A model generated the notes under the pieces. The model saw only the letters and a program-made list of their open reading frames with translations, had not been told where the DNA came from and searched no databases. From NCBI GenBank assembly GCA_947626595.1, contig CANQST010000003.1, positions 8,396 to 72,395 of the forward strand: a stretch of 64,000 nucleotides of DNA, read 5' to 3'. Shown here piece after piece: positions 26,191 through 30,197 of the stretch. Position 1 is the first letter of the stretch. Every line of letters starts with the position of its first letter. The DNA is from an uncultured Bacilli bacterium (GTDB taxonomy: Bacteria > Bacillota_I > Bacilli_A > RF39 > UBA660). Position numbers and translations under genes: made by a program.

Positions 26191-28158
26191 ATGAGTAATA
26201 GAAAACAAAAATATATTATAATTGGCGTTTTATGCTTGGTTGTAGTTTGTTTATCGATTGCATATGCTGTATTGTCTGCTAACTTAAGAATTAATGGTAC
26301 AGCTAATGTAGGAGGAGAAAAGTGGAGTGTTGAGTTTGTACAAAAGCAAGCAAAGACTATTCCAAAAGGAAAGGCAGTTTGTGAAATAGGAGATATCACT
26401 GGTACAAGTATAACTAATATGTCAGCAGTATTCCAATTACCAGGAGATAGTTGTACATTTACAATACCAGTAGAAAATACAGGTACTTTGGATGCCAGTT
26501 TAGTTGATGTAGAAGGAAAAGAAACTGCTCTATCTTTTGATGGTAATCAAGACGATATTGCCAAAATAAGCAGTTGGATAACATATGATGTATCATATGG
26601 AAATATAAAGATAGATAACTTAACTAATTTTGATAATATAGACACTTTAGAACCAGGAGAAAGAGAGACGATAACATTAAAAGTAGAGTTTAAGTTAGAA
26701 GCAGAAGAAATACCAAGTGAAGCTGTAACAATAGGAAACATGGGTAGAACATTTAACTTCCAAAATAAAACAAATGAAAGTACTATTACTCCAACTCCAG
26801 ATACAACACCTGTTTATCATGATACAAGTGGAGCAAACACTCCAGTCTTAAGTGATAACATGATACCCGTAGTATATGACGAAACAAGAAAAGAGTGGGT
26901 AAAGCAAGATTTAGATAAAAGTTATGATTACTCACAACAAGTATGGGCCAATGCAGTAACTGTAGTTGAAGATGGAACTCAAACAAGAAGTTATTATAAA
27001 AAAGCAAAGGCTGGAACAGTAATATCAATGGAAGATATAAACACTATGTGGGTATGGATACCAAGGTATTCATATACTATAAAAAGCGAGAATGGTGTCA
27101 ACTATTATGGAAAAGCTAGTACTGAAAATAAAAATCCAACTAAAGCTTTACCGGGAGAAATAGATATCAAGTTTATTCCAGTAACTCAAAATGATAGTGA
27201 AGGTAGTGCCTAATATACAGCCGAAGAAGCAACTGGATGGTATACACCACCAGGATTTAAACTTGGAGATAAAGATTTATCAGGAGTGTGGATAGGAAAG
27301 TTTGAAACAAGTAATGTAGAAAATTGTATTGGGACATCTTCTGCAAATACAGGATGCGATTTAGAAAATCTAACAGCAAAAATCAAGCCAAACGAAACAG
27401 CCTGGAGATATATTAGGGCATCAACACTAGAAATTGTTTCAATGCAATTAACAAATGACAAAAATATTTATGGTTTTGATAATACATATGACAGTCATGC
27501 TTCAAAAAATAAAGAATGGGCTTTAATGGCATATCTAACTCAAAGCAAATATGGAAAATATGGAAGTTCATTATATACTGGAGAAAATAAACAAGTATAC
27601 ATGAATAATTATAGCAAGAACCTAACTGGTTGTTCGTCTGGAACAGGAACAGCAGACACTGTAGAAACTTGTGCATATCGTTATGACGACACAACTTCAC
27701 AAGGAGAAGGAACTGGTTATGCTGGACAAGGAGCAAGTTCAACTGGAAATATATATGGAATTTATGATATCAATGGCGGTGCCTGGGAATACACAATGGG
27801 AATACTTAATAAAATGTCTGGAAACACTGAAGGAACAAATTCAGGATACACAGGAGAACTTACTGATGGAAGTACATATCAAGGCAGAGATTGGCCGGAT
27901 GCCAAATATTATGATGTATATACAAGCAATGATTTAAATACAGCATGTAATGGTTCTCCATGTAAAGGAGAAATTTTAGGTGAAGTTTCAGGTTGGTATA
28001 ATGATAGAACCAATATAGTTGATACAACAAGGCCATGGTTTGTATACAGTGGTAATCACTATAATGGTGTAGCATCGGGAATATTTAGCTATGGTCAGGC
28101 ATACGGCTCAATGAATATAATTTATTCATTTCGTATTGTTTTAACACCAAATAATTAA
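26191..28158 (+). pseudogene. paralog A of the secreted TasA/camelysin-like-N + FGE-sulfatase-like-C family, interrupted by one in-frame TAA (27211-27213)
   Basis: ORFs 26191-27213 and 27286-28158 are in the same frame and separated only by TAA. The readthrough sequence GSA*YTAEEATGW...VWIGKFETS is colinear with paralog B (GSAKYTESQP...IWVAKFETT). Confidence 0.7.
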
Positions 28159-28190
28159 TTTATAAACATTAAATGGTAGGTGAAATAATT

Positions 28191-30197
28191 ATGAATAGCA
28201 GAAAGCAAAAACTAATTATTATAGGTGCTTTATGTCTAGTTGTAACTTTATTGTCTATAGGTTATGCTGTTTTGTCAGCTAATTTAAGGATTAATGGTAC
28301 TGCTAAAGTATCAGGTGAAAAATGGAGCGTTGAGTTTGTAGAAAAGCAGGCAAAAACTATTCCAAAGGGAAAAGCTACTTGTGATATAGGTACAATTCAA
28401 AATACTTCAGTAACAAACCTATTAGCTAAAGTGAAAGTCCCAGGAGACAGTTGTACATTTACTATACCAGTAGAAAATACTGGAACTTTAGATGCCAGTT
28501 TAGTCGATGTTACTAATAAGGGTTTAGCTTTGTCATATAGTGGTGACCAAGGGGATATAGATATAATAAGTAGTTATATAACTTATGATGTAAGATATGG
28601 TAACACACAAATAAATAATGAAACTAATTTTGATAGTATAGATATACTAGAGCCAGGAGAAAGAGAGACTATAATTTTAAAAGTTGAGTTTAAAGAAGAA
28701 GCAACCCAGATACCAAATGAGGTAGTAACAATAACAGGATTAGATAGAACATTTAATTTTGAAAATAAGGTGGGTTCAAGTAGTACTAATCCAACACCAA
28801 ATACAACTCCAGTTTATCATGATGCCAGTGGAGCTAATCAACCAGTGTTAAATGGAGACATGATACCTGTAGTTTATGACGAAACAAGAAAAGAATGGGT
28901 AAAACAGGATTTAGATAAAAGTTATGACTATTCACAACAAGTATGGGCAAATGCTGTAACTGTAGTTGAAGATGGAACACAAACAAGAAGTTATTATAAG
29001 AAAGCCAAAGCCGGAACTGTTATATCAATGAGTGATATAAATACAATGTGGGTATGGATACCAAGATATTCATATACAATAAAGAGTGAAGATGGTGGAG
29101 AAAACTATTTTGGTAAAGCAAGTTCTGATAATGAAAGCCCAACTAAAGCATTACCAGGAGAAATAGATGTTAAGTTTATTTCAACAAGTCAAAATGACAG
29201 TGATGGTTCAGCAAAATATACAGAAAGTCAACCAAGCAACTGGAGAACGAATGATGCCTTTACTTTTGGAGACAAAATATTATCAGGTATATGGGTAGCT
29301 AAGTTTGAAACTACAGGTAGTTTATCTGAAGACCAACAGGCTTGTATTGATTTGAATTGTGATATAAGTAAAATAACGATAAAGCCAAATGTTTCTTCAG
29401 TAAGAAATCAAAGGATAAGCAGTTTCTTCTATATGGCAAGAAGTATGCAGAAAGAAAATAATCCATATGGTTTTAATAGTGAAAGCGGAGACTTGCATAT
29501 GTCAAAAAATAATGAATGGGGAGCAGTTGCATATTTAAGTCAAAGCAAATATGGTAAGTATGGTAATGGAGATTATAGTGGAGCAAATAAAGAAGTTTAT
29601 ATGAATAATAGTAGTGACTATATAACTGGAAACAGTAGTGGTACACCTGATGCTACTGAAATTAAGGGCGTTCTTCATGAATATAATGATATGAATAGCT
29701 TTTCAGGTGTTGGTGCAAGTACTACTGGAACAATATATGGAATATATGATATGAGTGGAGGATCAACTGAATATGTAATGGGAGGATTTGAGTATGATGC
29801 TCAAGGAAGTAATGAACATGCTGGACAAATATCTGTAGCTTCTTCGGGATTTAAAGGTTTAAGTGCTACTATACCACCTGCTGAAACTGGAACAATAAGT
29901 ATGCCAGAAAAGAAATATTACAATGTCTATAAAACAGCCACACCAACTTCTAGCATATGGTCTACAGCAAAGCCTGAACTTGCATGTAATTCAAACATTT
30001 GCTATGGACATGCTTTGTCGGAAACAGCTGAATGGTATGGAGACTACGCTTTGTTTGGTATACGATCATATCCATGGTTTAGACGTGGAGGAACGTACAA
30101 TAGTAGTCCAGTTGGTGGCTTGTTTCTAGCACATCCATATAGTGGAAATTATAATGAAACAATTTCAACTCGTTTAGTTCTAACACCTAACAATTAA
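28191..30197 (+). CDS. paralog B: signal-anchored secreted protein, TasA/camelysin-like N-terminal domain and FGE-sulfatase (SUMF1-like) C-terminal domain
   Basis: N-terminus LSANLRINGTAKVSGEKW...PGDSCTFTIPVENTGTLDASLVDV (cf. SipW-cognate/TasA leaders). C-terminus has NNEWGAVAYLSQSKYG (cf. FGE LPTEAEWEYAARGG), GIYDMSGGSTEYVMG (cf. GLYDMSGNVWEW) and a terminal RLVL. Start placed at the ATG at 28191 after the GGTAGGTGA SD. Confidence 0.85.
   Translation: MNSRKQKLIIIGALCLVVTLLSIGYAVLSANLRINGTAKVSGEKWSVEFVEKQAKTIPKGKATCDIGTIQNTSVTNLLAKVKVPGDSCTFTIPVENTGTLDASLVDVTNKGLALSYSGDQGDIDIISSYITYDVRYGNTQINNETNFDSIDILEPGERETIILKVEFKEEATQIPNEVVTITGLDRTFNFENKVGSSSTNPTPNTTPVYHDASGANQPVLNGDMIPVVYDETRKEWVKQDLDKSYDYSQQVWANAVTVVEDGTQTRSYYKKAKAGTVISMSDINTMWVWIPRYSYTIKSEDGGENYFGKASSDNESPTKALPGEIDVKFISTSQNDSDGSAKYTESQPSNWRTNDAFTFGDKILSGIWVAKFETTGSLSEDQQACIDLNCDISKITIKPNVSSVRNQRISSFFYMARSMQKENNPYGFNSESGDLHMSKNNEWGAVAYLSQSKYGKYGNGDYSGANKEVYMNNSSDYITGNSSGTPDATEIKGVLHEYNDMNSFSGVGASTTGTIYGIYDMSGGSTEYVMGGFEYDAQGSNEHAGQISVASSGFKGLSATIPPAETGTISMPEKKYYNVYKTATPTSSIWSTAKPELACNSNICYGHALSETAEWYGDYALFGIRSYPWFRRGGTYNSSPVGGLFLAHPYSGNYNETISTRLVLTPNN

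Follow-up and report, generated by a model that had tools for sequence, protein, structure and literature searches.

Many targets of diversity-generating retroelements (DGRs) that adopt a C-type-lectin (CLec) fold are phage tail proteins, and the typical cellular target is a binding protein anchored in the membrane (PMC8144416). TvpA has the fold of the formylglycine-generating enzyme (FGE) without FGE activity, and DGR targets of FGE type to which various N-terminal domains have been added form a category already described (PMC5758913). Human FGE (hFGE) uses S333, C336 and C341 in GGS-YM-C-HRSY-C, and the mapping between the variable protein TaqVP and hFGE is available (PMC6328139). Here we describe a locus that stands close to these systems. 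It lies in a stretch of 64,000 nucleotides, hereafter the window, from an uncultured Bacilli bacterium (assembly GCA_947626595.1, contig CANQST010000003.1, positions 8,396 to 72,395 of the forward strand). An earlier sequence-only reading had taken positions 26191-30197 of the window for a single gene in which a TasA/camelysin-like domain is fused to an FGE-sulfatase domain. The interval holds instead two tandem paralogues on the plus strand, called copy A and copy B below, and that reading missed the gene pair, the huge family to which it belongs and its connection with DGR variable proteins. With a probability of about 0.7, A and B belong to an unnamed and very large family of proteins exported by uncultured Bacilli that are low in GC and associated with hosts, and the family module is homologous to DGR variable proteins and likely serves non-catalytic extracellular binding.

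Copy B (28191-30197, plus strand) is intact and encodes 668 aa; the database protein P0001 is 100% identical to it and begins at the same ATG. Its open frame reaches further upstream, to 28173 (open reading frame (ORF) 28173-30197, 674 aa), and an AGGTG motif is found upstream of the ATG at 28191, which is likely to be the start. Residue numbers for copy B refer to the 674-aa frame. Copy A (26191-28158, plus strand) is a family member whose one frame is broken at 27211-27213 by an in-frame TAA; the corresponding codon of copy B is AAA for Lys. This stop codon is reproducible, because an independent ENA assembly (ERZ27249395) calls the same split into pieces of 340 and 290 aa, and copy A is likely to be a pseudogene or a split gene. 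The gap between the stop codon of copy A and the ATG of copy B is 32 bases, and from this spacing the two are probably co-transcribed. A and B are 70-98% identical up to about aa 350, whereas their lectin cores are 28-58% identical, and the TAA of copy A coincides with the breakpoint between the similar 5′ half and the diverged 3′ half. Compared with other paralogues, the N halves of A and B are 80-92% identical and the C halves 55-65%, and the best database partners differ between the two halves. Judged by these identities, copies A and B are mosaics.

The assignment of the module rests first on a structural model of copy B, which was built with AlphaFold2 from an alignment of 99 family members (predicted local distance difference test (pLDDT) 89.6, predicted template-modelling score 0.74). 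The chain starts with a leader and a hydrophobic helix (28197-28283, aa 9-37), which is helical in the model and carries the motif SIGYA directly before VLSANLRINGTAKV. Then comes a beta-sandwich (28329-28763, aa 53-197) with conserved C70/C94 and a PGDSCTFT..NTG motif, followed by a Thr/Pro/Ser-rich linker (28764-28835, aa 198-221) of low model confidence, with pLDDT below 50 at aa 201-209. The rest is the conserved family module (28836-30194, aa 222-674), in which an N-terminal wrap region precedes an FGE-subtype CLec core from about aa 360. The domain boundary had previously been put at about 330 aa; the beta-sandwich ends at about aa 197 and the conserved C-terminal module spans aa 222-674. 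When the model was compared with PDB by Foldseek, the top match was TaqVP (5VF4), a DGR variable protein of Thermus aquaticus, with E 7e-8, and the TasA fibre (8AUR) was matched with E 3e-3. The family profile gave weak matches among PDB sequences, to R28, AbpX and TaqVP, and three collinear motifs align with TaqVP; phmmer of the window proteins against all PDB sequences gave no match.

The most conserved stretch of the module is HMSKNNEWGAVAYLSQSKYGKYGN (29496-29567, aa 442-465), which matches the FGE/CLec helix motif LPTEAEWEYAARGG and aligns with HLMTNAEWAAVALLT of TaqVP. A second one, GIYDMSGGSTEYVMG (29739-29783, aa 523-537), is a motif of the FGE/CLec GxxDMxGNVWEW type and aligns with GIADLVGNVWEWVAG of TaqVP. 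The strings quoted in the sequence-only reading are real and all come from copy B (AVLSANLRINGTAKV at aa 32-46, PGDSCTFTIPVENTGTLDASLVDV at aa 90-113, NNEWGAVAYLSQSKYG at aa 446-461, GIYDMSGGSTEYV at aa 523-535 and RLVL at aa 667-670), and they are not due to chance, because they are conserved in thousands of homologues. On the predicted structure, the FGE-type assignment of the C-terminal part is right at the level of fold. Two Cys pairs are also conserved: C391-x4-C396 (29343-29360; Cys in 86 and 93 of the 99 sequences), for which a disulphide and a metal site are both possibilities, and C605-x4-C610 (29985-30002; Cys in 92 of 99 at each position), upstream of an RGG motif.

Variability is concentrated at the other end of the scale of conservation, in the last 50 or so residues, which are the most variable part of the module in the 99-sequence family alignment. 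Entropy averages 2.57 bits over aa 641-660, compared with 0.6-1.0 for the core motifs. From the entropy profile, aa 623-674 (30039-30194) are the equivalent of a variable repeat (VR), and the VRs of DGR-linked relatives map here. G639, G640, G649, F651, G658 and R667 make up an invariant scaffold within this segment. Copy B was thus found to have a CLec fold with the variable segment at the extreme C-terminus, and aa 623-674 form a putative ligand-binding face.

The link to DGRs comes from relatives of copy B. The 3′ end of each of about 95 family genes was compared with its own locus. Five of these genes have a repeat of 120-150 nt nearby, directly downstream in four loci and upstream in locus L059, and the mismatches between the VR and this template repeat (TR) occur almost only at adenines of the non-coding copy: 15 of 15 mismatches in locus L016, 21 of 22 in L023 and 21 of 24 in L033. 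The arrangement in L016 (6013-10440) is target gene (6013-8016), TR (8153-8278), an ORF of 146 aa, an Avd-like ORF, and a reverse transcriptase (RT) of 359 aa with IGNYTSQ and YMDD. RT and Avd are found in L023 and L033 as well. The target protein of L016 (667 aa) has leader, beta-sandwich and module as in copy B, with about 50% identity over the full length, and through this protein copy B is homologous to demonstrated DGR targets. Four alleles of it from different assemblies show one M/L difference in the first 627 columns, and all remaining differences lie in the last 40 or so residues. This is direct evidence of ongoing diversification. Some targets are remote from their TR. The VR of L038 is 0.99 identical at non-A positions and 0.44 at A positions to the TR of L016, which is on another contig, and the VR of L029 is 0.99 and 0.47 identical, respectively, to the TR of L033. 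A degenerate TR copy adjoins L029, yet its VR fits the L033 TR better. The GC content of active VRs and TRs is strikingly high (0.49-0.59), that of their loci being 0.28. The complete DGRs sit in related rabbit-gut Bacilli metagenome-assembled genomes (MAGs).

The family is far larger than this DGR-linked part. A HMMER scan of 1.84 billion representative proteins matched 10,238 clusters at E≤1e-3, 4,328 at E≤1e-10 and at least 2,242 at E≤1e-30, clusters being defined at 50% identity, and its proteins are unnamed in every source consulted. At least 574 loci were found in a scan of 185,579 species genomes, nearly all of them in MAGs labelled 'uncultured Bacilli' or 'Tenericutes' from animal guts. 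The rabbit-gut Bacilli MAG Lapin-028 bin30 has at least 31 loci. Tandem arrays of two to four family copies are common.

How such proteins could act can be sketched as follows. They would be exported by way of the leader, as is suggested by the hydrophobic helix and by leader motifs found family-wide, and then be anchored or released, possibly polymerised via the TasA-like domain. The CLec face of the last 50 or so residues would bind a putative extracellular ligand, for example on a host, microbial or particle surface; we infer this binding from the homology to DGR variable proteins and from the pattern of variability. The proposed role fits cellular DGR targets as membrane-anchored binders (PMC8144416) and TvpA (PMC5758913). 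The diversity of A and B would be due to paralogy and to recombination of a conserved 5′ half with a diverged 3′ half, not to hypermutation, and expression may be switched by simple-sequence repeats upstream. Several points weigh against this explanation. The stop codon in copy A may mean that at least one of the two genes is dead. The very strong conservation of much of the module outside the variable face (for example HMxKNxEWGAVAYLSQSKYGKYGN and the two CxxxxC pairs) could reflect a second functional site that is constant, or even a catalytic one. Also, the window covers 64 kb of the genome, and a DGR could lie beyond it.

The N-terminal half connects the family with TasA and camelysin. The copy B leader SIGYAVLSANLRINGTAKV reads as a variant of the TasA/camelysin (SipW-type) leader, and export is predicted from it. 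Its hydrophobic part is followed by a G-Y-A-x-L-S...G-T-A motif, which resembles GTWA|AFND...ASGTLDL of TasA. Most family members have canonical SipW/camelysin-type leaders, for example VGSSYAIFSD...TAGTLQL. The relatives P0104 and P0115 match Peptidase_M73 (PF12389) at 25.6 and 26.1 bits (cut-off 22.5) over model positions 12-88 of 196, and only the relative P0169 passes the TIGR04088 cut-off, with 20.0 against 19; the window proteins match neither PF12389 nor TIGR04088. By hhalign, the N-domain of the copy B subtype aligns with that of the canonical-leader group over 186 columns, with a probability of 96.5% and E 7e-10. The beta-sandwich is TasA/camelysin-like by transitive homology only, for which the name serves as a fair label. 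In structure searches it matched the TasA fibre and archaeal TasA-like pili, with weak and non-specific similarity. When a single TasA sequence was used in hhalign, the N-domain profile gave a probability of 4% and the canonical-leader group 69%, and this comparison is treated as uninformative. A search by motif and with a probe sequence, covering the window and 80 loci and thus a fraction of each genome, brought up neither an SGSMxP-type motif nor a SipW-like ORF.

Other members carry the same head on other N-termini. A subset of the family has type IV prepilin leaders, TIGR02532 being above its cut-off in P0164 and P0207. These two and about ten others have the lectin-type module on ComGC/GspG-like prepilin N-termini. 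The prepilin-leader members suggest that the head is displayed on pili in some organisms. Laminin_G_3 and Flg_new (Listeria-Bacteroides repeat) are further N-terminal modules in the family, and the head is a portable module on varied export or display N-termini. It has been considered whether A and B are subunits of a TasA-like fibre or pilus. In this case the leader would be cleaved, donor-strand exchange would link the N-terminal strand and beta-sandwich into a polymer, and the lectin heads would sit along or at the tip of the filament. The family-wide SipW/camelysin-type leaders, the occurrence of the same head on two kinds of filament-forming N-termini and the matches of the beta-sandwich to the TasA fibre and archaeal TasA-like pili all point in this direction. 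We judge such filament formation to be possible but rather unlikely, and it would refine the explanation by exported binding proteins, not compete with it.

Even at E≤10, searches of Pfam and NCBIfam with copies A and B gave neither FGE-sulfatase (PF03781) nor camelysin, and their sole match was a sub-threshold DUF11 at aa 89-194. Taken literally, the lack of any FGE or TasA-family profile match (PF03781, PF12389 or TIGR04088) in the window proteins counts against the two folds proposed in the sequence-only reading; most of that proposal is rescued by the deeper evidence, and both folds hold at superfamily level. EgtB-type enzymes require an added DinB domain. The framing of the module as a possible Cu/O2-dependent formylglycine generator is not supported, the Cys pair being absent. 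After the RGG motif copy B has RRGG-T-Y-N-S-S-P-V-G-G at the place of S333, C336 and C341 of hFGE, an equivalence taken from the motif and from the TaqVP/hFGE mapping (PMC6328139), not from coordinate superposition. No column past aa 610 has Cys in at least 10 of the 99 sequences, save column 666 (22 of 99), and both conserved CxxxxC pairs (C391/C396 and C605/C610) are outside the FGE catalytic position. As far as can be read from the sequences, the FGE catalytic Cys pair is absent and the family module is not an FGE enzyme.

It is very improbable, then, that A and B are true FGEs or related Cu/O2- or Fe-dependent oxidases acting on a secreted or cell-surface substrate. The FGE-subtype fold and the two conserved CxxxxC pairs would agree with such an enzyme, as would the weak matches of relatives to PF03781, which was found at E≤1 in 20 of 67 (best E 6.5e-5); the L016 protein reaches 22.6 bits with a cut-off of 23.3. 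However, PF03781 is unmatched in the window proteins, no Cys occupies the positions equivalent to S333, C336 and C341, and the conserved pairs are found at other places in the chain. No part of the family varies more than the presumed active-site region, which DGRs mutagenise in relatives. Besides the weak DUF11, no Pfam or NCBIfam domain was reported for the window protein, where an EgtB would need DinB. At least 31 paralogous loci in one genome are also unlike a maturation enzyme.

A and B themselves do not look like DGR targets. No TR was found in the 64-kb window, the 3′ ends of A and B being repeated only in paralogues, and tblastn with the RT and Avd of L016 gave no match in the window, while the same queries match L016, L023 and L033. 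Over the last 45 codons, the GC content at third codon positions (GC3) is at background level in copy B (0.13) and copy A (0.22), against 0.62-0.76 in DGR-linked genes. Compared with the known TRs, neither copy has a pattern specific to adenines; copy B is 0.57-0.63 identical to known TRs at non-A positions and 0.48-0.67 at A positions. The copy B sequence is identical in all three contigs carrying it, and one TA unit is the sole difference between the window and an 8-kb stretch of an independent assembly (L001). From this comparison, the reading that fits A and B best is that of non-DGR paralogues of DGR variable proteins. Copy B might still be an active target served in trans by a DGR outside the window, as remote targets occur in the family (the VR of L038 and the TR of L016 are on different contigs) and the window is a part of the genome only, but its low GC3 in comparison with active VRs, the missing adenine-specific pattern and its invariance across three contigs make this scarcely credible. 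A phage receptor-binding protein or prophage remnant, which the phage tail proteins among CLec-fold DGR targets (PMC8144416) and the XRE/CI-like helix-turn-helix (HTH) genes adjoining copies C and D of the window might suggest, is hardly tenable, for searches of the IMG/VR viral contigs and of 50,697 phage records (INPHARED) gave no relatives, the genes around A and B are housekeeping genes (fusA, tuf, a CDF transporter, femAB and murD), an N-terminal leader helix is present, and no phage genes recur beside family members.

The immediate surroundings of A and B consist of rpsG, fusA and tuf upstream and the CDF transporter, femAB and murD downstream, at a GC content of about 30%. In the family as a whole, no recurring partner genes beyond DGR parts were found beside its members. 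A 3178-aa ORF (11513-21049) sits upstream of rpsG, fusA and tuf. It was tried as a fused rpoBC, which is wrong; Pfam gives only weak Dockerin_1 and GLUG, and the ORF probably encodes a giant surface protein.

Three further members lie near the end of the window on the plus strand, all of them without the beta-sandwich. Copy C (59440-60900) is a shorter member with leader and module, copy D (61569-63050) is likewise shorter, and copy E (63175-64000) is the fifth member and continues past the window end. A divergent XRE/CI-type HTH gene precedes both C (58962-59315, minus strand) and D (60947-61333, minus strand). In copy C, GC3 is 0.51 in the last 45 codons against 0.19 elsewhere, which suggests a VR recently orphaned or remotely targeted, and its divergence from known TRs is adenine-biased. 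Copy C was rejected as a target of an active DGR, since four assemblies have the same VR and the window holds no TR for it. In the 5′ part of copy C, where C and D are about 94% identical, differences between assemblies are clustered at 59676-59805, and they fit either gene conversion between paralogues or assembly chimerism.

For the VR-equivalent part, the last 45 codons, GC3 was compared among 88 family genes from L002-L080 and the window, and the values form a continuum from 0.76 in active VRs to 0.09 in the background. The VRs of L032 and L005 are 0.86-0.87 identical to the TR of L033 at non-A positions. In four window copies, 90-96% of the last 52 residues can be encoded by NNY codons, against 81-84% in the rest of the protein. 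The continuum, the intermediate VRs and the NNY bias are suggestive of an origin of many paralogues as former VRs that would be drifting to genome composition.

Among phase-variable surface-protein systems of Mollicutes and mucosal pathogens are Mycoplasma Vlp and homopolymer switches in promoter spacers. Two tracts in the window, both given on the plus strand, can be considered from this point of view. A (TA)11 repeat (26020-26041), about 150 bp upstream of the start of copy A, is a candidate hypermutable tract; L001 has (TA)10 instead, which is the single difference over 8 kb mentioned above. A promoter scan around copy A gave no more sites than shuffled sequence, and (TA)n could not be placed in a promoter. 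Upstream of copy E, a promoter-like sequence at 63108-63139 consists of a perfect TTGACA as −35, 8 nt plus G11 (63123-63133), and TATACT as −10, so that its 19-nt spacer holds the poly-G. No other G/C run in the 64 kb reaches a length of 8. Depending on the assembly, the tract measures G10, G11 or G12, and two contigs end there. Since the length of both tracts differs between assemblies, they are candidate phase-variation switches.

These observations may be joined in a more tentative proposal, in which surface variation in small-genome gut Bacilli would have three layers. First, DGRs would hypermutate a few heads. Second, duplication and recombination would freeze variants into a germline repertoire of dozens of paralogues, with old VRs decaying AT-ward. 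Third, promoter repeats (poly-G, TA) would switch individual copies. The heads would be carried on TasA-like or type IV pilin-like filaments, and A and B would be fossil variable proteins. The GC3 gradient of 0.76-0.09, the intermediate VRs with 0.86 non-A identity and the 90-96% of NNY-encodable residues are consistent with this proposal, which as a whole we would put at clearly less than even odds. If its fossil-VR and phase-variation parts are right, the family would document the fixation of DGR-generated diversity in genomes and would be a candidate determinant of colonisation or immune evasion in RF39- or Tenericutes-like gut bacteria.

The family of putative exported binding proteins is of interest apart from this proposal. 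In uncultured Bacilli associated with hosts it runs to thousands of clusters, with dozens of copies in a genome, yet has no name or curated domain model. Its placement with DGR variable proteins points to a function that can be tested, namely the variable binding of ligands at the cell surface. One scaffold in one lineage follows two routes of diversification, retroelement hypermutation and paralogue expansion, and N-termini of TasA type and of prepilin type suggest that CLec heads are shown on filaments in a new way. The sequence-only reading was aware of no described family with this fusion. FGE-type DGR targets with varied N-termini have been described (PMC5758913), and the literature searched gave none with an N-terminus of TasA type. 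In that literature, there were no papers on DGR together with TasA, and nothing relevant on DGR with camelysin or RF39. A TasA- or prepilin-type N-terminus, paralogue expansion on this scale and the coexistence of DGR-linked and unlinked members were likewise not found there.

In comparison with known systems, the family shares the FGE-subtype C-type-lectin fold with TaqVP (5VF4), TvpA (2Y3C) and Mtd (1YU0), which are DGR variable proteins (category 'b' targets of Wu et al. 2018, PMC5758913). Unlike TaqVP, TvpA and Mtd, A and B are without TR, RT and Avd in the window and without the signature of adenine mutagenesis. The family module is also larger, about 450 aa with long inserts, and is fused to a TasA-type leader and beta-sandwich. 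Moreover, the family is massively paralogous, and most of its members are not DGR-linked, an adjacent TR having been found for 5 of about 95. The helix motif EW..A.YL and the G.YDMSGG.EY motif of copy B are those of FGE (SUMF1) and pFGE (SUMF2), both in PF03781. In contrast to these proteins, the region equivalent to the active site is hypervariable and a PF03781 score is absent, and the function would be nearer to that of non-catalytic pFGE and TvpA. With TasA and camelysin (PF12389, TIGR04088, 8AUR) and archaeal TasA-like pili (7UEG, 7PNB, AbpX 9SJ2), copy B has the PGD...N.G beta-sandwich motif in common, whereas it has no direct profile match and bears a 450-aa head that is absent from TasA and camelysin. 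Finally, although the protein fold is unrelated to that of Mycoplasma Vlp-type families and the repeat of copy A is not within a recognisable promoter, the family resembles them in being large and paralogous and in consisting of exported proteins, in a host-associated genome that is small and low in GC, with tandem arrays and variable upstream repeats.

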